DNA of 64,000 bases, from contig CAXXFF010000002.1 in the NCBI GenBank assembly GCA_963676835.2, forward strand, positions 320,001 through 384,000, given 5' to 3'. The DNA is from Marispirochaeta sp. Lineage in GTDB: Bacteria > Spirochaetota > Spirochaetia > JC444 > Marispirochaetaceae. This document shows, one piece after another, positions 8,743-24,460 of this stretch (position 1 is its first letter; every line of letters begins with the position of its first letter). Under the pieces are notes generated by a model. That model did not search any database. It saw only the letters and a program-made list of their open reading frames with translations, and was not told the origin of the DNA. The position numbers and the translations under genes were made by a program.

Positions 8743-9144
8743 TCAAAAAACCTCAGCCATATCCTGCTGATTATCTTCTGCACCTTCAGGCTGATCCTCT
8801 TCCTTATCATTGCTGCTGAACTGAGGTTTAAACTCAACCTTATCGGCAACAATCTTCACCTTATTCTGAACCTTACCGTCCTTATCCTCCCAGCGATCCT
8901 GCTTCAGCCGCCCTTTAATGCGTACACCCCTTCCCTTCTTGAGGTTTTCCGCACACCTTTTGGCCGTGTCGGACCAGGTCTCGATGTCGAAAAAAGATAC
9001 TTCCTGTTTGTTTTCATCCTCCTGACGGTAATACCTGTTTGAGGCAACAGAAAATGAGCAGACCGGGGTGCCCTTCGGGGTCTCTTTAAGCTGGGGATCA
9101 CGGACCAGATTCCCATCAATCATGATGTCGTTTAATGGATTCAT
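8743..9144 (-). CDS. ssb: Single-stranded DNA-binding protein
   Basis: GNLVRDP..TPKG and LKKG..V.IKGRLKQDRW OB-fold motifs; acidic tail ending in F. Confidence 0.95.
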   Translation of the reverse strand: MNPLNDIMIDGNLVRDPQLKETPKGTPVCSFSVASNRYYRQEDENKQEVSFFDIETWSDTAKRCAENLKKGRGVRIKGRLKQDRWEDKDGKVQNKVKIVADKVEFKPQFSSNDKEEDQPEGAEDNQQDMAEVF

Positions 9145-9384: not shown

Positions 9385-9511
9385 TCTGAGGCCAAGCTTG
9401 ATAGTTGATTTAAAGATAACTGTATTTATTCAACATTCAGTTTCTTGAAGCAGGAAACCATATGTGCGGTATCTTTCTATAGAGAACAACCCTGTTTAGG
9501 AGGTATACAAT

Positions 9512-9832
9512 ATGGGAGAGACACATATGGAACTTGGTTCTAAAGAATTATAGTATATTGGCGATTATATTCGCCTGCATATCCCCGAATGGTTTCCAGC
9601 GGTTAAGACTGACCGGCAGATTAACCTGGTGGAACGAATCGTTCGCGTTGAGGAAGAGCTTAAGTCTCAGCGTGAACTGATGATTCAGGGCTTTAATTCG
9701 ATAGATAAACGCCTGGAAAGCAATGAAAAACGGTATGAAGATATGAACAGCCGTTTTAACAGCCTTCAATGGACAATCGGCCTTGGTTTTACCCTCATGG
9801 CCGGATTGATGGCGGTTTTTAATCTCTTTTAA
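9512..9832 (+). pseudogene. Coiled-coil/TM heptad-repeat family gene, copy P1, interrupted by TAG at codon 14 (9551-9553)
   Basis: Reads MGETHMELGSKEL*YIGDYIRLHIPEW...QWTIGLGFTLMAGLMAVFNLF; clearly homologous to the array at 15851-18136; AGGAGG RBS present. Confidence 0.85.
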
Positions 9833-9928
9833 ATTGGAATACCTTCTTTTTCCATATTACCAACCCTATTTTTAGCGATCCTTGAAGCAGCAGCTCAGTT
9901 TCCCGGTTACTAGTACCGGAGGCTGCCA

Positions 9929-10900
9929 ATGGCGCGAAACTATAAAGATACGGGACTTACTGAACTCTTCCGGCACCCGGCGTTTATTAACTCATTGCTT
10001 ACCGAAATAGTTGCCGAACCATGGGTAAACCTTATTGACTTCAGTACCATGAAAATAGAAGACGGAGTTCACAAAGATATTGCAGAGCCTGCCCTGTTCA
10101 GCGACCTTATTGTCAGCTTTTCCTGTACAAAAAAGTCTGAGAACATAGGACTTTCCATTTATCTGCTGATAGAATTCCAGAGCAGCCCGGAACCGATGTC
10201 CTTGCGGCTTTTAGAATATCTTGCCCGGGTATACAGGAAACAAACCCATGGGAAAAATCGTTACAGCCCTCTTCACCCCGTGGTACCGATTGTAATCTAT
10301 AACGGAGAAAGACCATGGAAAGAGGATCCCTGCTTTATTAAGCGGTTTACCAATCTTCCAATGAGTCTTGTCCCATACATTCCGGATTTCCGCTATTTTC
10401 TGCTTGATGAAGGCAGATTTGATCCGATCCTGCTTTCACAGCTTAAAGGGGCGGCTGCCGCTTTTATTCAACTTGATACAATTTCTGAACCTGAAAAAGT
10501 GGATGAGGCATCAGCAACAATTATTTCCATATTACATCAGCTGTGGAAAAGAGAACCCGAAGCAGCCACACTACTGTCAAAATACATAGAAGGACTGCTT
10601 GCCCACCGAGGAATTGATAGCCCCGCTGTGACTGAGTATATTAATGGACGGAGGAGACCGATGTTTGCAGAAAGACTTGACCGTGCCCTAGATAATAAAT
10701 GGAAGGAAGGCGTTCTTGAGGGCGCTATCCAAGAGAAGCAGATGGTCTTACTGAGACTTCTCTCCCGCAAGTTTGAGATAAGCGATGCTGATCGGATTAT
10801 AGTTAATTCCTGTAAAAATCCGGATAAGCTGGATGCGGCGCTGGATGTTATTCTGTTTGCGTCTGAGAAAAGTGATGTAATAAACGAGATCGATCAGTAG
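9929..10900 (+). CDS. Rpn-family recombination-promoting nuclease / putative transposase (PD-(D/E)XK), copy 1
   Basis: SDLIV..YLLIEFQS, MSLRLLEY, PVVPIVIYNGERPW and YIPDFRY motifs; helical C-terminus LLRLLSRKF (DUF4351-like). Confidence 0.9.
   Translation: MARNYKDTGLTELFRHPAFINSLLTEIVAEPWVNLIDFSTMKIEDGVHKDIAEPALFSDLIVSFSCTKKSENIGLSIYLLIEFQSSPEPMSLRLLEYLARVYRKQTHGKNRYSPLHPVVPIVIYNGERPWKEDPCFIKRFTNLPMSLVPYIPDFRYFLLDEGRFDPILLSQLKGAAAAFIQLDTISEPEKVDEASATIISILHQLWKREPEAATLLSKYIEGLLAHRGIDSPAVTEYINGRRRPMFAERLDRALDNKWKEGVLEGAIQEKQMVLLRLLSRKFEISDADRIIVNSCKNPDKLDAALDVILFASEKSDVINEIDQ
10661..10900 (+). CDS. Putative in-frame internal product (RpnS-like, 79 aa) of Rpn copy 1
   Basis: GGAGG at 10650-10654, 6 nt before an in-frame ATG (codon 245, MFAERLD). 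Confidence 0.65.
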   Translation: MFAERLDRALDNKWKEGVLEGAIQEKQMVLLRLLSRKFEISDADRIIVNSCKNPDKLDAALDVILFASEKSDVINEIDQ

Positions 10901-10975
10901 TCCTTTCCAACCCCTTTTTCAAAATTCCTTGAAGCAGCAGCTCAGTTTCCCGGTTACTATTACCGGAGGCTGCCA

Positions 10976-11971
10976 ATGGCGCGAAACTATAAAGATACGG
11001 GACTTACTGAACTCTTCCGGCACCCGGCGTTTATAAACTCATTACTTACCGAGATAGTTGCTGAACCATGGGTAAACCTTATTGACTTCAGTACCATGAA
11101 GGTAGAAGACGGAGTCCATAAAGATATTGGCCAACCAGCACTCTTCAGCGACCTTATTGTAAGCTTTTCCTGTACAAAAAAGTCTGAGAACATAGGACTT
11201 TCCATTTATCTGCTGATAGAATTCCAGAGCAACCCGGAACCGATGTCCTTGCGACTGCTGGAATATCTAGCCCGGGTATACAGGAAACAAACCCAGGGGA
11301 AAAAGCACTATAATCCTCTGCATCCTGTGGTTCCGATTGTAATCTATAACGGTGAAAGGCCATGGAAAGAGGATCCCTGCTTTATTATGCGATTTACCAA
11401 TCTTCCAATGAGTCTTGTCCCATACATCCCGGATTTCCGCTATTTTCTGCTTGATGAAGGCAGGTTCGACCCGATACTGCTTTCACAGCTTAAAGGTGCA
11501 ACAGCAGCCTTTATTCAACTGGATACTCTCACTGAACCTGAAAAAGCTGACAAGGTATCAGCAAAAATTATAACTATATTACATCAGCTGTGGACAAGAG
11601 AACCCGACGCAGCCAGGCTGCTGTCCAAATACATAGAAGGTCTGCTGGCCCACAGGGGAATTGATAACCCTGCTGTCACTGAGTATATTAATGAACGGAG
11701 GAGACCGATGTTTGCAGAAAGACTTGACCGTGCCCTGGATAATAAATGGAAGGAAGGCCGTAAACAAGGAAAAGAGGAAGGAGTCCTCGAGGGTGCCATT
11801 CAAGACAAACAGACTATCTTAATGAGACAACTCTCCCGCAAGTTTGAGGTAAATAACGCCGATCAGGAACTGGTTAACTCCTGCAAAGATCCGGATAAGC
11901 TGGATGCAGCGCTGGATGTTATTCTGTTTGCGTCTGATAAAGGCGATGTTTTGAGGGAGCTGGAAAATTAG
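10976..11971 (+). CDS. Rpn-family nuclease, copy 2 (tandem paralog)
   Basis: Near-identical N-terminal domain to copy 1; extra RKQGKEEG and a more divergent C-terminus. Confidence 0.9.
   Translation: MARNYKDTGLTELFRHPAFINSLLTEIVAEPWVNLIDFSTMKVEDGVHKDIGQPALFSDLIVSFSCTKKSENIGLSIYLLIEFQSNPEPMSLRLLEYLARVYRKQTQGKKHYNPLHPVVPIVIYNGERPWKEDPCFIMRFTNLPMSLVPYIPDFRYFLLDEGRFDPILLSQLKGATAAFIQLDTLTEPEKADKVSAKIITILHQLWTREPDAARLLSKYIEGLLAHRGIDNPAVTEYINERRRPMFAERLDRALDNKWKEGRKQGKEEGVLEGAIQDKQTILMRQLSRKFEVNNADQELVNSCKDPDKLDAALDVILFASDKGDVLRELEN
11708..11971 (+). CDS. Putative in-frame internal product (RpnS-like, 87 aa) of Rpn copy 2
   Basis: GGAGG at 11697-11701 before in-frame ATG 11708. Confidence 0.65.
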   Translation: MFAERLDRALDNKWKEGRKQGKEEGVLEGAIQDKQTILMRQLSRKFEVNNADQELVNSCKDPDKLDAALDVILFASDKGDVLRELEN

Positions 11972-12141
11972 TAGCTGGATTTTCCAAAATCCATAAATTT
12001 TCAAATTTTGTTCGTTATCTTAGATTATACTTTTGTTTAAAAATTTTTTTCTACCTCCTTCCGGCATCTTGAGACCATTTACATAGAATCATTCCATCTA
12101 AGACTACCCATGTTTGGAGTTAGACTATTGAAGAGATACAT

Positions 12142-12447
12142 ATGGAACTTGGTTCTAAAGAATTACAGTAAATTGGCGATTATATTCGTCTGCATATCCC
12201 CGAATGGTTTCCAGCGGTTAATACCGACCGGCAGATTAACCTGGTGGAACGAATCGTTCGCGTTGAGGAAGAGCTTAAGTCTCAGTGTGAGCTGATGATT
12301 CAGGGCTTTAATTCGATAGACAAACGCCTGGCAAGTAATGAAAAGCGATTCACGGATATGAATAACCGTTTTAACAGCCTTCAATGGACTATAGGTCTTG
12401 GTTTTACCCTCATGGCAGGGTTGATGGCGGTTTTTAATTTCTTTTGA
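12142..12447 (+). pseudogene. Coiled-coil/TM heptad-repeat family gene, copy P2, interrupted by TAA at 12169-12171
   Basis: Reads MELGSKELQ*IGDYIRLH...MAVFNFF; the first ATG seen in P1 is ATT here and the RBS is eroded. Confidence 0.85.
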
Positions 12448-13258: not shown

Positions 13259-14320
13259 TTAGAAGTCGCAGGTAACAACCATGTAGATACCGCCTTCCAT
13301 GGCACCAGCAGCACCATTAGCGTTGCTTGACCAGCCAGCGTCGGTCATGTAACCGAGGCGGTACTGAGCAGCACCGATATTTACATAGGCAGAAGCATCA
13401 AGTCCTTCGGAAGAAGATGAATCCATGTTGTATTTGAAATCGATGTCTGCACCGAAATCGCCATAACCGAGGCTTACACCACCACCAAGGATGTTCATTG
13501 TAACATCATCATTTCCGGAGAAAGATACAGATGCATCAACAGAAGTCATGTCATCGATATCCATGGCATAAAGTGCACCCGCACCAAAAGCCATCTTGTC
13601 ACCATCAGTATCAGCTTCGGTGTCAGTAGAGAAAGAACCACCTACAGTAAGACCAGCCATTGTATAAGAGGCATCTGCCGCGATTATAGTAGACTTTGCA
13701 ACATCGTTAGCAGTACCAGTAGGAGCAAGGTTTTCATTTGTCAGCTTTGCGCCTGCCTCAAAAGAGAGACCTTCAACCAGAGAAGTAGATCCAACAAGGA
13801 AAAGCATCTGAGGAGTATGCATAGCAACAGAACCAGTTGAATCAGTAAGATCATCAACCATGAAGTTCATATTAGACGCTACAGAAGCCCATATGGAACC
13901 GAAATCAAGGTTTACATCCAGAACTGCATCAGACGTCATAGCACCGATGTAACCGGCAGAAGCCTGATTTGCATTTCCGAAGTCAGAGTATTCCTCACCT
14001 TCGGGTCCCTGAATACCAGAAACAAGCTCAACACCTACACCAGACAGTCCAAGGTACGCACCAAGGTCGGTAGTAAGCTTGAAGCCATCCCAAGCAATAT
14101 CATTAGCGGCTGTAGCTTTGTAATCAAACTCAGTTGACATGCTGTTGTATTCATCGATATCTACAGCAATACCAAGTTCCAGCTCATCAAACCCTGCTGA
14201 ATAGTTGTCATCAAAATTGCTGGTCCAACCGAAGTCAGTGTCCCAAGAGAAGCTCCAGTCTGCCGCGAAAGCGGTAGTTGCAAGAGCAAGTGCAACAAAA
14301 AGGACGATAAGTTTTTTCAT
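13259..14320 (-). CDS. Probable major outer-membrane beta-barrel/porin-like protein
   Basis: SPI signal peptide (AFA), acidic Gly/aromatic strands, terminal Phe (YMVVTCDF), strong promoter/RBS and its own terminator. Confidence 0.7.
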   Translation of the reverse strand: MKKLIVLFVALALATTAFAADWSFSWDTDFGWTSNFDDNYSAGFDELELGIAVDIDEYNSMSTEFDYKATAANDIAWDGFKLTTDLGAYLGLSGVGVELVSGIQGPEGEEYSDFGNANQASAGYIGAMTSDAVLDVNLDFGSIWASVASNMNFMVDDLTDSTGSVAMHTPQMLFLVGSTSLVEGLSFEAGAKLTNENLAPTGTANDVAKSTIIAADASYTMAGLTVGGSFSTDTEADTDGDKMAFGAGALYAMDIDDMTSVDASVSFSGNDDVTMNILGGGVSLGYGDFGADIDFKYNMDSSSSEGLDASAYVNIGAAQYRLGYMTDAGWSSNANGAAGAMEGGIYMVVTCDF

Positions 14321-15633: not shown

Positions 15634-15656
15634 AGCCGGATTTACCGCATATTTAT

Positions 15657-15745
15657 TCTCACAGAGCTCACGGAGAGCACAGAGAATAGGTAATTATTAT
15701 CTTATAACCTTAATACACTCAGTTTCAAACTCTGTGCCCTCCGAG
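15657..15745. repeat. CACAGAG/CTCTGTG inverted repeat (REP/MITE-like)
   Basis: TCTCACAGAGCTCACGGAGAGCACAGAG (15657-15684) pairs with CTCTGTGCCCTCCG (15730-15743) and matches 25/28 the reverse complement of 17718-17745. Confidence 0.7.
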
Positions 15746-15850
15746 TCCCTGAAAGCGGTTTTCTTGTTACCATATGAAGCAAACCGCCTGATTCAGGGTT
15801 TCTCTTTATAGAGAGTATAGAGATCCATACAAAAAAGAGGTATTATAAAA

Positions 15851-16216
15851 ATGGGAGATGCACAAATGAACCTTGGCCCGGAGGAATTGCAAAAAATCGG
15901 CGATTATGTACGCCTTCATCTAAGCGAATGGCTTCCACGCCCTACAACAACTGAGAGGGAAATCAACCTTGTCGAACGAATAGTTCGGGTAGAAGAAGAG
16001 TTGAAATCCCAGCGGGATCTGATGATTCAGGGCTTTAAAGCTGTGGATAAGCGCTTTGAAGACGTAAATAAGCGATTTGAGGACGTGGACAAGCGCTTTG
16101 CGAGTATAGACAAACGCTTCGAGGACATGAACTCCCGCTTTACCAGCCTCCAGTGGACCATCGGCCTCGGGTTTACCCTCATTGTCGGCCTTATGGCTGT
16201 TTTCAACTTTTACTGA
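15851..16216 (+). CDS. Coiled-coil, C-terminally membrane-anchored protein, copy A (5 heptads)
   Basis: 121 aa; DKRFEDV-type heptads and hydrophobic tail WTIGLGFTLIVGLMAVFNFY; GAGG RBS. Confidence 0.9.
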   Translation: MGDAQMNLGPEELQKIGDYVRLHLSEWLPRPTTTEREINLVERIVRVEEELKSQRDLMIQGFKAVDKRFEDVNKRFEDVDKRFASIDKRFEDMNSRFTSLQWTIGLGFTLIVGLMAVFNFY

Positions 16217-16360
16217 AAACGTTCCTGCCAAACTCTATCTTCAATCTCTGTGGTGCCCTCTGTAAGTATTTTTCTTACTGCCCATGAAGCAAACTGCCTC
16301 ATCCACAGTTTCAGCTTATAGAGAGTATAGAGATCCATACAAAAAAGAGGTATTATTAAA

Positions 16361-16702
16361 ATGGGAGATGCACAAATGAATCTTGGGCCGGAAGAGCTGC
16401 AGAAAATTGGGGATTATGTCCGCCTTCACTTAATCGAATGGATACCAAGAACCAGTACAGAACGGGAATTAAACCTGGTTGAGCGCATTGTCCGGGTGGA
16501 GGAAGAGCTCAAATCCCAGCGGGAACTGATGATTCAGGGGTTTCAGGCTGTGGATAAGCGCTTTGAAGATGTAAATAAGCGTTTCGAAAGCATAGACAAA
16601 CGCTTCGAGGACATGAACTCCCGTTTTACCAGTCTCCAATGGACAATCGGCCTCGGGTTTACCCTCATTGTCGGCCTTATGGCGGTTTTCAACTTTTACT
16701 GA
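16361..16702 (+). CDS. Coiled-coil/TM protein, copy B (4 heptads)
   Basis: 113-aa paralog of copy A. Confidence 0.9.
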   Translation: MGDAQMNLGPEELQKIGDYVRLHLIEWIPRTSTERELNLVERIVRVEEELKSQRELMIQGFQAVDKRFEDVNKRFESIDKRFEDMNSRFTSLQWTIGLGFTLIVGLMAVFNFY

Positions 16703-16843
16703 AAACGTTCCTGCCAAACTCTATCCTCAATTTCCGTGCCCTCTGTAAGTTATTTTCTTACTGCAGATGAAGCAAACTACCTCATCCACAGTTTCTCTCT
16801 ATATATGGTATAGAGATCCATACAAAAAAGAGGTATTATAAAA

Positions 16844-17125
16844 ATGGGAGATGTACAAATGAACCTTGGCCCGGAGGAACTGCAGAAAATCGGCGATTAT
16901 GTCCGCCTTCATCTTACCGAATGGCTTCCACGCCCTACAACAACCGAGAGGGAAATTAATCTGGTTGAACGCATAGTCCGGGTAGAAGAAGAGCTGAAAT
17001 CCCAGCGGGAGCTTATGAAACAGGGCTTTGAAGCTGTGGACAAGCGCTTTGTGAGCCAACAATGGATGATGGGTCTGGGATTCACTATCATCGCAGCATT
17101 AATGGCAGTTTTCAACTTCTACTAA
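16844..17125 (+). CDS. Coiled-coil/TM protein, copy C (1 heptad)
   Basis: 93-aa paralog of copy A. Confidence 0.9.
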   Translation: MGDVQMNLGPEELQKIGDYVRLHLTEWLPRPTTTEREINLVERIVRVEEELKSQRELMKQGFEAVDKRFVSQQWMMGLGFTIIAALMAVFNFY

Positions 17126-17284
17126 AAACTCACCAGCCAAACTCTATCCTCAATCTCTGTGCCCTAAGCTTACCGTGTTCTTCGTGAGAGAATTTCCTTA
17201 CTGCCGATGAAGCAAACCGCCTGATTCAGGGTTTCTCCTTATAGAGAAGTATAGAGATCAATACAAAAAAGAGGTATTATAAAC

Positions 17285-17689
17285 ATGGGAGATCTTCAAA
17301 TGAATCTTGGACCGGAAGAACTGCAGAAAATAGGTGACTATGTACGGCTCCACCTGGCGGACTGGCTTCCCAGAACAACTACCGAGCGGGAAATCAACCT
17401 TGTCGAACGCATTGTCAGAGTAGAGGAAGAGCTCAAATCCCAGCGGGAACTGATGATTCAGGGTTTTCAGTCTATGGAAAAGCGTTTTGAGGACATTGAT
17501 AAGCGTTTCGAAGATGTTAATAAACGCTTTGAAGATGTAGACAAACGTTTTCAGAGTGTGGACAAGCGTTTCGAAAGTATTGATAAACGCTTTGAAGATA
17601 TGAACTCCCGCTTTACCAGCCTCCAATGGACAATCGGTCTTGGTTTTACCCTCATTGTTGGCCTGATGGCGGTCTTCAACTTCTACTAA
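17285..17689 (+). CDS. Coiled-coil/TM protein, copy D (7 heptads)
   Basis: 134-aa paralog of copy A. Confidence 0.9.
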   Translation: MGDLQMNLGPEELQKIGDYVRLHLADWLPRTTTEREINLVERIVRVEEELKSQRELMIQGFQSMEKRFEDIDKRFEDVNKRFEDVDKRFQSVDKRFESIDKRFEDMNSRFTSLQWTIGLGFTLIVGLMAVFNFY

Positions 17690-17836
17690 AAACTTTCCCC
17701 TAAGCTCACTCCTCAAACTCTGTGCCCTCCGTGGACTCTGTGAGAGATTTTTTACTGCTATGAAGCAAACAGCCTCATCCACAGTTTCCCGGTATAGAGA
17801 GTATAGAGATCAATACAAAAAAGAGGTATTATAATC

Positions 17837-18136
17837 ATGGGAGATGTTCAAATGAATCTTGGACCGGAAGAACTGCAGAAAATAGGTGACTATGTACGGC
17901 TCCACCTGGCGGACTGGCTTCCCAAAACAACTACCGAGCGGGAAATCAACTTAGTCGAGCGCATTGTCAGAGTAGAGGAAGAGCTCAAATCCCAGCGGGA
18001 ACTGATGAAACAGGGCTTTGATTCTATTGATAAGCGGTTTGAGGCCGTAGACAGACGTTACAGCAGCCAGCAATGGATGATCGGCCTCAGTTTTACCCTC
18101 ATTGCCGGGTTGATGGCTGTCTTTAATTTTGTCTGA
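17837..18136 (+). CDS. Coiled-coil/TM protein, copy E (2 heptads)
   Basis: 99-aa paralog of copy A. Confidence 0.9.
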   Translation: MGDVQMNLGPEELQKIGDYVRLHLADWLPKTTTEREINLVERIVRVEEELKSQRELMKQGFDSIDKRFEAVDRRYSSQQWMIGLSFTLIAGLMAVFNFV

Positions 18137-18190
18137 ACCGGTCAATTCCGGGTTCTTTTTCGCCAGTAGAAGGGCAGCAATGCGGCTCTT

Positions 18191-20565: not shown

Positions 20566-23500
20566 TTATTGCAGCTTTAGAGTCTCCATATCCAATGGGA
20601 TATCTGTATAGATCTGAAGGTCGTAGTTCTCCACCGGATAAAGCATGGCCCGCTGGTTCAGGTATCCCAGGTTCACCGCACTTCCCCGCTGCATACTCTC
20701 CGGCTCCCTGCGAAGCAGGTCAAAATTTTCAGCAGAATCAGTGAAATGCCCAAGGGCCCGGGAAAACTTTTCACGATCCCCCGAGGCAAGAGAAAGCCGC
20801 TGAAGAGTCACCCCGAGGTTGTTATGGGTACGGATCAGCCTTTCAATGAGTGAATAGTCCTCTTCCCGCTCGTTGGGAAGGAGCACGCTGATATTTCTGC
20901 GCTCCTGCTGCAGTTCATCAAGGAGATGAGTATAGTACCCCTGGGCGGCGTAGTAGTCTGACCGGTTAAACAGGGCATTTCCGGTGGCAAGAAGCAGGTT
21001 TTCGTTATCCGAATAATCATCCGCAGCCAGGTAGAACTCGGCAAGGGCATCCTGATATTCAGTGTTATTGTAATAGATATAGCCTTTCTTGTAGTTGATT
21101 TCCGGGGCTTTGTACCCGGTTTTCTCCGCCTGGGTAAACATTTCAAAGGCACTGCCGAACTCAGCGGCGATGTAATAGTAGAGATCGCCCAGATTTTTAT
21201 AGATCCGTCCGAACATCGGCTCAGGTTCGAGCACCCGGCGTTCAAGACCATCCTCATACTGGTCACGGGCTGTAAGAAAGTACTCTTCTGCAGTCAGATA
21301 GAGTCCATCCTGATAATCAACCTCCCCCTGCCGGTTATAGGTATCGATAAGCAGCTTCTGCTGCCGTTTTCCCAGCGGGGTGGTCTGCTCAAAATAGTGC
21401 TCCGCATAATCCAGAGCCTTGCGTTCCTCAACAGGATTATCCACACGCCTGAAATAACGGGAAAGATTATAGTGCCCCTCCGGCAGCTCAGGTTCTTCCT
21501 CCAGCGCCCTGGAGAGAATCCCCCGAACATCATCAAGGTCGTTTTTCCCGATCAGGTAACCTCCAAGTTCAGCGTAGGCATCGGGTTCAACCTTCAGTTT
21601 TTCCGCTGCCTCAAACTGATCCTTAAGGCGGGTTACCTCCTTGTAATTATCGGTGCGGATAAAATAGCGGAGCATGCGGAAAAGGTATTCATACTTCTGA
21701 CCGTAGTACTGCATAAGCACGGAATAGGAATGCCGGGCATCCTCATAGCGCTGATAGTCGTACTCTCCCCAGGCAAGGTAATTATCCCCCTCGGCAAGCA
21801 GGGCATCCCGGTCGTGCCGTTCCTGGGCAAGGAGAACATCAAGAAGTTCTTCGGCATGTTCAAAATTCTCGGTCTTTTCTGTCTCCATGGCAGCGTAATC
21901 CAGCAGAGCCTGCCGTTCAGATCCCCGGATTTTATCCACCTCCGGGTGTTTCTCGAGCCTGCCGTTTCTCCGGATAAGCACCGGTGCGGCCAGCGCCTCA
22001 TATTTTGCCCCTGCGAGACTGTACTGCCTGCGGTCAGCAAACCCTTCTGCATAACGGAAATACTGATTCTTGTATCTCCACTCTTCCGTTGCGTTATCAA
22101 AGAAGAGATTCGCTTCCCGGTATGCATCCTGCTCCAGCTGCCTGTATCCGGCATTGTAAAGAATAAGAGCATGGATGGGACGGTAGACGAAGGTATAGCT
22201 TAAAAAGCCCAGAAGCCCCACGGCGACCAGAACCAGTGCGGCAACCCTGAGAATGGGAAGAATTGTGTGCCTGAAGGCATAGGCAAAGGTTCCTTTTTCT
22301 TCTTCAAAGGCCGCACCGGTACTCTTCTCATACCGGGTTGGAATTTTTATCTTTTTGCCCGTAATGGTGCCGACCAGGGCTGCAATTTCTTTGGAGCTTT
22401 TGCCGTCGACCAGGGCACGAACAAGCTTCTGCAGGTGCGGCCCGGAAAGGTTTTTCTCGCCGATCAGTTCTTCGACGGCAATCTTCAGATTCAGCGGCTG
22501 GAGATTCAGGGTCTCCTGAAGGGCCTCAAATTCATCATCCTCAAGATCCAGAACTTCATCACTCTGAGGCAGTTCACCGCTGACGTCCAGTGCCGGGTTC
22601 AGCTGCTCTTCCGTCCCGACATCAAAGGTCTCTTCGAGTTCCCCGAACTGCTCGCCCAGATCACCCAGGCTGAACTCATCTACCTCAAAGTTGTTTTCAT
22701 CAATATCTTCGATATCGCCGGCGGAGGGAATTTCAAATTCATCAAATTCTCCACCTTCATCAGCGGCTGCGCCGGGGATCGATGGTTCATCGAAGGGAAA
22801 ATCTTCCGAAATCGAGAAATCCGCTTCATCCCCGCCGGAATCCGAACTGAACTCATCATCGAAGAATGAGAGTTCTTCATCCGCACCGTCCGCAGGGCCT
22901 TCCTCCGGCGCGGCAATTGAATCATCATCAAAGGAAAACTCTTCGTCGAGCCCGGGCAGGCTGAAATCCTCTTCCACGGCCTCTCCGGTTGATTCTTCCA
23001 TCTCACCATCGGAAAAAGAAATTTCATCGCCAACTGGAGTCTCTTCCATGTCCTCCATGGAAAAATCATCGGGGAGAGAAAATTCATCCTCTCCTTCTAT
23101 GGCATCCCCGAGGGCTTCTTCCTCAAGCCCTGCAGGGATATCGAAACTCTCCTCTGCCTCATCAGATGCAGACTGATCAGCATCACCATCAAGTTCAAGC
23201 AGGTCCGCGGCATCGGCAAACTCTTCGGGAATTTCAAACTCGTCCGCTCCTGCCGCTGAATCTTCAGTAAAATCCATGCCTTCAGGGGTGGAAAAATCAT
23301 CTTCCTCAGGTATATCTGCACTTTCGGATTCTTCCGGGAAATCAAAACCGTCGGGCAATCCGAACTCATCATCCCCTTCTTCGGCTGGCTCTCCTTCCTC
23401 AATAGGGGCAACAGGTTCATCGACTGACTCATCGCCAAAGTCCATCCCCGCGGGCAGCCCGAACTCATCTTCCGACTCTATTTCCGCAGCTTCAACCGGC

Positions 23501-24291
23501 TCTTCTTCCGCATCGGAAAAATCAAAGCCCTCGGGGAGACCGAAATCGTCCTCCCCTTCGGAGGAAGACTCCTCAAGGGCTTCCTCGGAAATGTCCATAT
23601 CATCGGGCAGACTGAAATCACCTTCAGAGTCAACGGCGGGAATGTCTGCAGTTTCATCAGTGAAATCCATACCTTCCGGCAGGCTGAAATCATCTTCTGC
23701 TGACGGTAAAGGCTCTTCTTCACCGTCAGCGATTGTCTCTTCAAGAAAGTCCATACCTTCCGGCAGGGAAAAATCATCTTCCGCGTCAGCGGCAGACTCA
23801 TTTGAGAAATCCGCTTCTTCAGATAGCTCGCCTTCGTCGGACTCTTCCAACGAAGGCTCGTCGGAAGCAAAATCAGCAGGAATATCGAGCCCGTCGGGAA
23901 GAGAAAATTCATCCTCCGGTTCGCCCATATCCGAAGCAGCATCACCCTCTTCAGATGTTTCATCTTCATCATCAAGACTGAACCCGGAAAGCAGGTCTTC
24001 GGGGATGGAAAAATCATCTTCTTCATCCTGGGTTGATGGCGGAAGCTGGTCTTCCCCTTCATCCACACCGAAGATTGATTCTTCCGGCTCCTCCGCCACA
24101 GAGGCAGGAACGCTCTCATTTCCGAAGTCATCGCCGGCTGTTCCCAGCAGGGCATCCAGGTCGGCATCGAGGCCTGATTCGGGTACGGGAACATCCTCCA
24201 GCCGTTCTCCCCGCTGGGCGAGAATCGACGGTTCATGTCCGAGAGCATTGAGATCTGACTTAAACTGTTCTATGTCTTCGAGCCTGGGCAC
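20566..24291 (-). CDS. flcA: Large acidic-N-terminus/TM/TPR protein, probable periplasmic flagellar collar protein FlcA
   Basis: GTG start (MPRLEDIEQFK..LGHEP..LAQRGE) after AAGGA; long acidic region, single TM and TPR-like C-terminal half; family name from recall. Confidence 0.65.
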   Translation of the reverse strand: MPRLEDIEQFKSDLNALGHEPSILAQRGERLEDVPVPESGLDADLDALLGTAGDDFGNESVPASVAEEPEESIFGVDEGEDQLPPSTQDEEDDFSIPEDLLSGFSLDDEDETSEEGDAASDMGEPEDEFSLPDGLDIPADFASDEPSLEESDEGELSEEADFSNESAADAEDDFSLPEGMDFLEETIADGEEEPLPSAEDDFSLPEGMDFTDETADIPAVDSEGDFSLPDDMDISEEALEESSSEGEDDFGLPEGFDFSDAEEEPVEAAEIESEDEFGLPAGMDFGDESVDEPVAPIEEGEPAEEGDDEFGLPDGFDFPEESESADIPEEDDFSTPEGMDFTEDSAAGADEFEIPEEFADAADLLELDGDADQSASDEAEESFDIPAGLEEEALGDAIEGEDEFSLPDDFSMEDMEETPVGDEISFSDGEMEESTGEAVEEDFSLPGLDEEFSFDDDSIAAPEEGPADGADEELSFFDDEFSSDSGGDEADFSISEDFPFDEPSIPGAAADEGGEFDEFEIPSAGDIEDIDENNFEVDEFSLGDLGEQFGELEETFDVGTEEQLNPALDVSGELPQSDEVLDLEDDEFEALQETLNLQPLNLKIAVEELIGEKNLSGPHLQKLVRALVDGKSSKEIAALVGTITGKKIKIPTRYEKSTGAAFEEEKGTFAYAFRHTILPILRVAALVLVAVGLLGFLSYTFVYRPIHALILYNAGYRQLEQDAYREANLFFDNATEEWRYKNQYFRYAEGFADRRQYSLAGAKYEALAAPVLIRRNGRLEKHPEVDKIRGSERQALLDYAAMETEKTENFEHAEELLDVLLAQERHDRDALLAEGDNYLAWGEYDYQRYEDARHSYSVLMQYYGQKYEYLFRMLRYFIRTDNYKEVTRLKDQFEAAEKLKVEPDAYAELGGYLIGKNDLDDVRGILSRALEEEPELPEGHYNLSRYFRRVDNPVEERKALDYAEHYFEQTTPLGKRQQKLLIDTYNRQGEVDYQDGLYLTAEEYFLTARDQYEDGLERRVLEPEPMFGRIYKNLGDLYYYIAAEFGSAFEMFTQAEKTGYKAPEINYKKGYIYYNNTEYQDALAEFYLAADDYSDNENLLLATGNALFNRSDYYAAQGYYTHLLDELQQERRNISVLLPNEREEDYSLIERLIRTHNNLGVTLQRLSLASGDREKFSRALGHFTDSAENFDLLRREPESMQRGSAVNLGYLNQRAMLYPVENYDLQIYTDIPLDMETLKLQ

Positions 24292-24460
24292 AGTTATTCC
24301 TTCTCTTATGAGAGTTTCGGCCAATTTCTGATTCTGTTCAAGCAGAGTTTTCCACAGGAACCGCGGTATATGGAAAAAACTGCAGCAAACGCCGGATATG
24401 GTCCGGTGAAACTAGCTTTAATAAAGGAAAAAGCCTTTTGTACCGAAAATTGGGACTAAG

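Follow-up and report, generated by a model that had tools for sequence, protein, structure and literature searches.

What could five tandem genes for the same kind of short membrane rod, each with a stalk of a different length, be doing in a spirochaete, and when would the cell call on them? The locus that raises this question lies in a stretch of 64,000 nucleotides (nt) from Marispirochaeta sp. (GCA_963676835.2, contig CAXXFF010000002.1, positions 320,001 to 384,000 of the forward strand), which we call the window; the genome holding it is G000, the window is G000:C2:320001-384000, and plain coordinates are window positions. Five intact plus-strand paralogs, c1 to c5, occupy 15851-18136, each encoding a head of 61-62 amino acids (aa), in-frame 21-nt heptads and a hydrophobic C-terminal segment, with heptad counts in order of 5/4/1/7/2. 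An earlier note, made from the letters of this DNA, had described these five paralogs, their shared head of about 62 aa, their C-terminal anchor and their heptad counts, all of which are confirmed by the open reading frames and by hydropathy. The earlier note missed a promoter motif, TGAAGCA-N12/13-CCGGTT, which stands upstream of each array copy and is shared with recA, radC, comM, comF, dprA, ssbB and a pilus operon, and the putative regulation of the array by this competence-type motif is the new element here. The genes and their motifs, all on the plus strand, are as follows, percentages giving the rank among 3865 upstream regions of G000 and scores coming from the model, described below, that was built on radC and comM regions alone.

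15851..16216, plus strand: c1, 121 aa, 5 heptads (16037-16141), C-terminal membrane anchor; motif at 15774..15802 (score 14.7, top 0.85%), 77 nt before the start codon
16361..16702, plus strand: c2, 113 aa, 4 heptads (16544-16627); motif at 16284..16312 (score 14.1, top 1.14%)
16844..17125, plus strand: c3, 93 aa, 1 heptad (17030-17050), head nearest the single ortholog in genome G002; motif at 16767..16795 (score 14.1, top 1.14%)
17285..17689, plus strand: c4, 134 aa, 7 heptads (17468-17614); motif at 17207..17235 (score 14.7, top 0.85%)
17837..18136, plus strand: c5, 99 aa, 2 heptads (18020-18061), tail nearest the G002 ortholog; motif at 17760..17788 (score 14.1, top 1.14%)

The upstream motif and the genes that share it

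Upstream regions of both head types, that of the array and a second one described below, share TGAAGCA, 12-13 nt and CCGGTT-like letters. A first model, trained on 20 family upstream sites from other genomes, gave high ranks in G000 to a neighbouring pair of Rpn/YhgA-like nuclease genes, the other family genes, dprA and recA. Across genomes, this family-trained model scored at least 10 upstream of recA in 16 of 30 genomes, compared with 8 of 180 controls made by shuffling or reversal, and a model built on family sites plus recA reached the same mark before radC in 17 of 28 (controls 2/168) and before comM in 16 of 29 (controls 3/174), 2 of 30 radC and 1 of 30 comM loci having been left out as incomplete. 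The radC and comM sites lie nearly all 36-58 nt before the start. The G000 background holds 217 of 3865 upstream regions at 10 or above. Since most scores of 10-13 across the genome amount to noise (79 of 2449 against 51 reversed), weight was given solely to high scores or to those recurring across genomes.

Motif discovery run afresh on 49 radC and comM regions, with family genes, recA, G000 and G002 all left out, returned the same two-box motif. When the resulting model is brought back to G000, it places c1-c5 in the top 0.85-1.14% of the 3865 upstream regions, five other intact family genes in the top 0.03-0.67%, recA, the secretin gene, comF and ssbB in the top 1% and radC in the top 1.8%, while lexA and uvrA sit near the 78% mark. 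In other genomes, 20 of 26 family genes fall in the top 5%.

The motif in G000 precedes comF, a dprA-comM-yraN operon and a TPR-dprA operon, and it stands 35 nt before the first gene of a secretin/ATPase/platform/pilin operon (G000:C1:834791-844787, L271) that is a candidate DNA-uptake filament. The 260-nt window before dprA is mostly coding and uninformative, and the operon leader was scored instead; 8 of 28 other genomes carry the motif at the xerC/TPR-dprA junction, and 7 of 14 have it ahead of the secretin or prepilin-peptidase leader. The dprA-comM-yraN operon itself (G000:C2:730842-733768, L158) has a strong motif and is found in G000 and G002, unlike the comM type of other congeners; these two genomes probably acquired it horizontally. 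Other genes that follow the motif in G000 are operons containing uvrD and recN, a RecQ-like helicase, a methyladenine glycosylase, an EEP-family nuclease, and DUF559, PDDEXK_3, Y1 transposase and integrase genes. A secretin-operon match in G013 was dropped, as the sequence encodes a conserved peptide of the upstream gene, and so was a count of 11 of 30 genomes at 10 or above before comEC, most of those matches likewise encoding a conserved peptide in the gene upstream. A perfect-looking motif inside the gene upstream of comEC (G000:C1:665900 region, L136; about 10 genomes) could act as a promoter within that gene or simply follow from that peptide.

This gene set mirrors, by analogy, the core SigX regulon of streptococci, whose gene set includes RmuC (PMC5069739), and the diderm transformation set of ComM, YraN, DprA and ComFC, with dprA, comM, comF and pilins named as transformation genes in PMC13663708. 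As with streptococcal SigX (ComX), one promoter type would stand before recA, radC, comF, dprA, ssbB, pilins and lineage-specific accessory genes. The spirochaete case differs in its promoter sequence, with two boxes, in being a diderm with ComM and YraN, in having no ComEA found and no clear inclusion of comEC and rmuC, and in a sigma factor that is only a candidate, known from sequence alone. ComEC, ComF and the secretin/ATPase/platform/pilin operon are present in G000. RmuC is a membrane-anchored coiled coil, and its place in the streptococcal core regulon offers a loose precedent for the rods. In several genomes recA keeps, by eye, a separate sigma70-type promoter upstream of the motif, an arrangement resembling the double control of PMC11708029. 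We consider it likely that the rods are co-regulated with recA, radC, comM-yraN-dprA, comF, ssbB and the filament operon, and the regulon that shares the motif is probably that of competence.

The spacing of the boxes and their short distance to the start codon suggest a -35/-10 promoter, and the leading candidate for reading it is a divergent sigma factor. G000 has ten sigma70 region-2 matches, one of which is a divergent, fast-evolving, sigma-like protein of 290 aa encoded at G000:C3:162600-163472 (L259:1501-2370). This protein has no name in NCBIfam or the Atlas, and the best structural neighbours of its model are sigma factors, none of them at E<=0.001. Its gene is present in 34 of 41 genomes, in single copy in most, and all 22 genomes scoring at least 10 at radC or comM have this gene. 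In five genomes that lack the gene (G008, G015, G031, G038 and G039) the motif is missing at the genes scored, and the family genes of G015 have sigma70-type promoters instead. By eye, a GG-N10-GC element of sigma54 type precedes most of the 12 copies of the sigma-like gene that were read.

Other regulons were tried and rejected. For heat shock, dnaK and clpB are without the motif and a groES match (11.0) is distant and within noise. For FliA (sigma28), flagellin genes are not among the motif matches, and one flagellin gene has, by eye, a TAAG-N15-CCGAAA-type site. For LexA/SOS, the motif is found before uvrA in 0 of 30 genomes, and the low G000 ranks of lexA and uvrA were given above; lexA (G000:C2:390077-390682, 6 kb past the window end) overlaps its preceding gene and carries no motif.

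The rods, their relatives and the history of the array

Misassembly, which the earlier note had raised, is unlikely, because stretches specific to c1, c3, c4 and c5 (15831-16135, 16824-17236, 17434-17829 and 17979 onward) are matched by Logan contigs of run X1 with 0 differences and at single-copy depth, about 14-16 over the array against 16 in the flanks. X1 is possibly the source sample, and no single X1 contig covers the whole array; one X1 contig has 5 differing letters at 16138-16198, probably from a sister copy. In run X4 (X2-X4 are small shares), one contig, at depth 3.4, has a joint that passes over one 502-nt unit, which is too little to build on.

The C-terminal segment of c1-c5 peaks at 1.8-2.0 in a 19-residue hydropathy scan, which finds no hydrophobic segment in the N-terminal part of the proteins, and the head presumably faces the cytoplasm because there is one C-terminal hydrophobic segment and none N-terminal. 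A monomer model consists of a short helix (10-27) and one long helix (33-120) at pLDDT 85. The three-copy model is a parallel coiled coil with a/d contacts and one stutter, pLDDT 82, contact agreement between runs of at least 92% and a score of 0.77 against 0.00 for the best of 3 controls; among proteins of solved structure, 20 of 30 pairs and 1 of 23 single chains reach the mark for this score, counts that are only a rough guide for a trimer. The array proteins are accordingly modelled as tail-anchored homotrimeric coiled coils, the outcome of a trimer prediction that the earlier note had proposed.

No Pfam family scores above cut-off for the five proteins, NCBIfam gives sub-threshold coiled-coil matches only (among the best 25 of 53 families), a sequence search of the PDB returns chance coiled-coil matches only, and Foldseek has no match at E<=0.001; in the Atlas, unnamed Spirochaetota clusters match them. 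A likeness to Borrelia Bdr and DUF1640 that had been proposed for the array holds in plan and not in membership, as neither family appears among the profile matches listed. With the DUF1640/CCDC90-like proteins (PF07798; MCUR1, CCDC90B and prokaryotic relatives, the last reportedly treated in a 2019 paper in Structure), the array shares an N-terminal head, coiled-coil stalk, C-terminal anchor and trimer model, and of its homolog clusters P0033 and P0064 one bears a DUF1640 name from its source and the other has PF07798. PF07798 itself has 0 matches in G000 at E<=0.1. The motif [aliphatic]-A-T-K-[polar]-[DE], which forms the beta-layer neck at the start of the DUF1640 stalk (PMC4786415), is absent from all five array sequences, where one continuous helix (33-120) runs instead, and the array genes differ further in their apparent tie to a competence-type promoter.

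Borrelia Bdr proteins also have a C-terminal anchor. According to PMC3303823, the Bdr (PFam80) genes form a multigene family with no known function, in which the in-frame repeats differ between strains and recombination reassorts alleles. The array is likewise a spirochaete multigene family, its 1-7 in-frame imperfect repeats varying among paralogs; Bdr genes reside on plasmids and prophages, whereas the array is a chromosomal tandem array with a different repeat unit. Neither the KID repeat (PF02524) nor the Bdr N-terminal model (NF040499) matches c1, c2, c3 or c5 at E<=1 or appears for c4 among the best 25 of 51 families, and the Bdr models are also not among the best 25 of 53 NCBIfam families.

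A search for the family gave 1372 homologs among 1453 candidates, and a head-only profile gave 481 clusters, of which the best 150 are all 47-245 aa long, with the head near the N-terminus and no fused partner domain. Family members turned up in 25 of 61 genomes, and 2-3 copies lie together at 10 of 79 metagenome loci. Arrays whose members differ in length are seen with three different heads. G043 has an eight-gene tandem array (L034:5143-10983) with another head and proteins of 130-159 aa, the length 152 occurring three times and 151 twice; its DNA is near-identical, with long runs of short repeats between genes and no competence-type motif. G004, an assembly with 12% contamination, has length-variable arrays with another head in at least 4 copies; its tandem arrays at L033:9616-11462 and L031:6554-9120, of the second head type, lie at contig ends and most copies have the motif, and the gene adjoining them is one we take to be GxxExxY-like. 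A third head-stalk-anchor gene, G000:C2:1251026-1251529 (L272), ranks in the top 1.5% for the motif and adjoins toxin-antitoxin-like genes; its head has no profile likeness to that of the array. One scan of viral contigs gave 33 pattern matches, none of which was confirmed. No account of this rod family or of a spirochaete competence regulon was found in the literature searched (most subscription journals and supplements lay outside its coverage). The array is not unique, as G004, G043 and the metagenome loci show.

The intact frames had been taken to suggest selection, and purifying selection is indeed supported: dN/dS, the ratio of nonsynonymous to synonymous divergence, is 0.02-0.23 over head plus tail in 9 of 10 copy pairs, not near 1, the c3/c5 pair being saturated. 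Third-position divergence among copies is high, and 9 of 61 head codon columns change residue. Synonymous divergence (dS) between copies reaches 1-3, as large as that of the flanking genes between G000 and G002 (1.2-1.6), so the copies are not simple recent duplicates. The array genes are mosaic by recombination. Heads group c4 with c5 and c1 with c3, whereas tails group c1, c2 and c4 against c3 and c5; the heads of c4 and c5 are 8 nt apart and their tails 18, and the tails of c1 and c2 are 4 nt apart and their heads 36. The G002 copy combines a c3/c1-like head with a c5-like tail and would be what collapse of an array or exchange of alleles leaves behind. The dS of its head against c1 and c3 is 0.29-0.39, below that of the flanking genes, which suggests recent exchange.

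The neighbourhood of the array

The array is carried on a 1.94 Mb contig, between syntenic core genes, and the features around it are these.

8743..9144, minus strand: feature with motif score 14.4, top 0.96% of 3865 upstream regions
9512..9832, plus strand: broken copy A, in-frame TAG, 3 heptads; motif at 9445-9473, score 20.7
9929..10900, plus strand: Rpn/YhgA-like nuclease gene 1, PF04754 at E 3e-18; motif at 9882-9910, score 22.2
10976..11971, plus strand: Rpn/YhgA-like nuclease gene 2, paralog of gene 1; motif at 10929-10957, score 22.2
about 12133..12447, plus strand: broken copy B, start lost, TAA, 3 heptads; no motif (score 2.4)
15671..15743, no strand assigned: REP-like inverted repeat, arms 15671-15684 and 15730-15743, left edge of the array

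Broken copies A and B, with 3 heptads each as the earlier note had counted them, flank the tandem Rpn/YhgA pair (9512-12447), and broken copies occur at the neighbouring site in G000, G001 and G002. Towards the 3' end of each Rpn gene lies a ribosome-binding site with an ATG (in gene 1 at about 10650-10665), the arrangement that an internal RpnS antitoxin would predict. Like the array, the Rpn/YhgA toxin-antitoxin nucleases vary in the number of repeats in a helix (PMC10400941), and here they adjoin the array and carry the same motif; the array proteins differ from them in having a membrane anchor and no nuclease domain.

The array site, 15634-18190, appears as an accessory-gene hotspot beside the inverted repeat, which we call REP-like. 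Remnants of the right arm recur between array copies, and the pattern has only 3 matches in the G000 genome, all at this locus. Integron-like cassettes were considered and set aside, as no attC-like structure was seen and the pattern is confined to this locus. The equivalent site holds one copy, of one heptad, in G002, none in G003 or G004, and in G001 (L046:10931-11508) two small opposite-strand genes that presumably resemble a MazEF/PemIK pair. Two further minus-strand genes were noted in the surroundings: the 353-aa product of 13259-14320 has a signal peptide and an aromatic C-terminus and is probably a porin of the outer membrane, with no Pfam match and with synteny in congeners. The product of 20566-24324 is 1252 aa long, and its very long acidic repeat stretch gives way to membrane and TPR-like segments.

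What the rods may do

We propose that the rods are accessory inner-membrane members of a spirochaete competence regulon whose copies multiplied and recombined at a hotspot of insertion, a reading to which we give about an even chance. Each would be a small inner-membrane protein with a C-terminal helix as anchor, a homotrimeric coiled-coil stalk and a short helical head in the cytoplasm. An alternative sigma factor would read TGAAGCA-N12/13-CCGGTT, and the motif, if it acts as a promoter, would switch the rods on together with recA, radC, comM-yraN-dprA, comF, ssbB and the type IV filament operon. The rods may then serve as a tether or spacer holding the conserved head near the point at which incoming DNA is handed to recombination or nuclease proteins, a tentative role that we rate somewhat below an even chance. 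Stalk length would be tolerated over about 6-12 nm and would change by slippage and unequal recombination, and the array would be a dosage expansion at an accessory-gene hotspot in which units of promoter plus gene are reshuffled by homologous recombination.

A number of observations weigh against this proposal. The motif is absent in good form from 6 of 26 family genes elsewhere (in G043, G015, G041, G023 and one G004 copy) and from 42 of 61 metagenome family copies, many of them probably from other phyla, and as the motif is not found throughout the family, its link can be taken as established in just a part of Spirochaetia. The motifs of the array score lower and sit farther out (77-78 nt) than those of radC and comM; the array leader is conserved along its whole 78 nt (60 of 78 positions), so that conservation does not mark out the boxes, and a second sigma70-like site overlaps the ribosome-binding site of the array genes. 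The box widths and spacer range of the de novo run were taken from the earlier model, and related genomes are not independent. Several expected genes fit poorly in G000: radA is weak (top 12%), rmuC has no motif, comEC has no clean intergenic motif, its best matches lying in an upstream coding region and confounded by protein sequence, and no ComEA was found with the one model used, the only HHH_3 match being in an 804-aa frame. The secretin operon is type II secretion system-like (PF08334) and found in 14 of 41 genomes, fewer than carry the motif. As to the reader, G012 and G017 have no sigma-like gene yet one motif-like site each, several genomes have the gene without the motif, and ECF sigma factors (38 of 41 genomes) and RpoS-like ones (28 of 41) fit about as well by counts. 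The oligomer was modelled with three copies only, and the rods may instead be dimers or tetramers. No partner protein emerged, and a weak search for longer proteins gave 10 matches of 49 candidates, all of at most 205 aa and without a fusion.

The rival explanations fall in the order in which we take them here. The rods may instead act as gatekeepers timed to DNA entry, restricting DNA or phage or protecting the induced cell together with the co-regulated Rpn, DUF559, GxxExxY-type and RhuM-like genes, with the copies raising dosage. No motifs in the window are stronger than those of the Rpn pair, sites with high scores likewise precede DUF559, PDDEXK_3, Y1 transposase, integrase and HEPN/YefM-YoeB genes, family genes are often found among small accessory genes, and the Rpn proteins of Escherichia coli are anti-phage toxin-antitoxin systems (PMC10400941). 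Against this, the PADLOC library of 2023 matched 0 of 7 proteins, the heads are conserved and not diversifying, with changes at so few codon columns, and many family copies stand alone among housekeeping genes. The possible defence role that had been suggested for the array thus retains an indirect hint, in the promoter motif of its Rpn neighbours, and gains nothing from PADLOC or the viral scan; we regard gatekeeping as unlikely. A family of selfish hitchhikers, whose promoter times expression to DNA movement and favours its own spread with no benefit to the host, would leave arrays as the residue of repeated allele uptake. Such a family would fit the patchy, multi-copy and position-variable distribution (25 of 61 genomes), the closeness of the G002 head to c1 and c3 relative to the flanking genes, and the broken copies at the neighbouring site in three genomes. 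The low dS is also explicable by gene conversion in an ancestral array, and the proteins have no nuclease, recombinase or DNA-binding domain and, in the best 150 of 481 head clusters, no fusion; hitchhiking seems to us quite improbable.

The earlier note favoured a diversified, selected series in which one head is held at several fixed distances from the membrane, each length with a distinct job. No two intact copies share a length, as it stated; the five are intact and constrained, their rods span about 6-12 nm, and length-variable arrays recur with three heads. Drawing from the heptad counts of 108 homologs gives five all-different lengths by chance with P = 0.33; lengths recur within the G043 array, and at the equivalent site the sister species has a single one-heptad copy and two congeners have none. 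Because all-different lengths are this probable under the homologs' own distribution, the series is best read as tolerated, not demonstrated as selected, and we hold the selected series to be very improbable. Least probable in our view is a general DNA-damage or stress regulon, SOS-like or under an ECF factor, with the rods as envelope-stress scaffolds unrelated to DNA uptake. The sites before the uvrD and recN operons, the RecQ-like helicase and the methyladenine glycosylase, and the wide presence of ECF factors, would suit it; the motif is not palindromic, is missing before uvrA in 30 of 30 genomes and, in G000, before lexA, uvrC, recG, recR, mutS, priA, dnaK and clpB, and it does precede genes of transformation (dprA, comM, comF and pilins, as listed in PMC13663708).

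The proposal that the rods belong to a competence regulon bears on a wider group of proteins: head-stalk-anchor rods are spread over more than a thousand sequence clusters, form many tandem arrays and have no known bacterial function. The array by itself is a modest, recurrent finding, and it is the promoter link that makes both the array and spirochaete competence directly testable, as the shared motif names a concrete condition under which rod expression and phenotype can be sought and predicts a competence regulon, with a candidate master regulator, in environmental spirochaetes. A wider picture, which we think possible yet on balance doubtful, is that in free-living Spirochaetia a divergent sigma factor under sigma54 control drives a competence programme of which the rods are a dedicated part, reshuffled by the very uptake they serve or police. 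If the regulatory link is true, it would be the first functional handle on recurrent length-variable rod arrays, and natural transformability would supply a genetic tool for marine and sediment spirochaetes.

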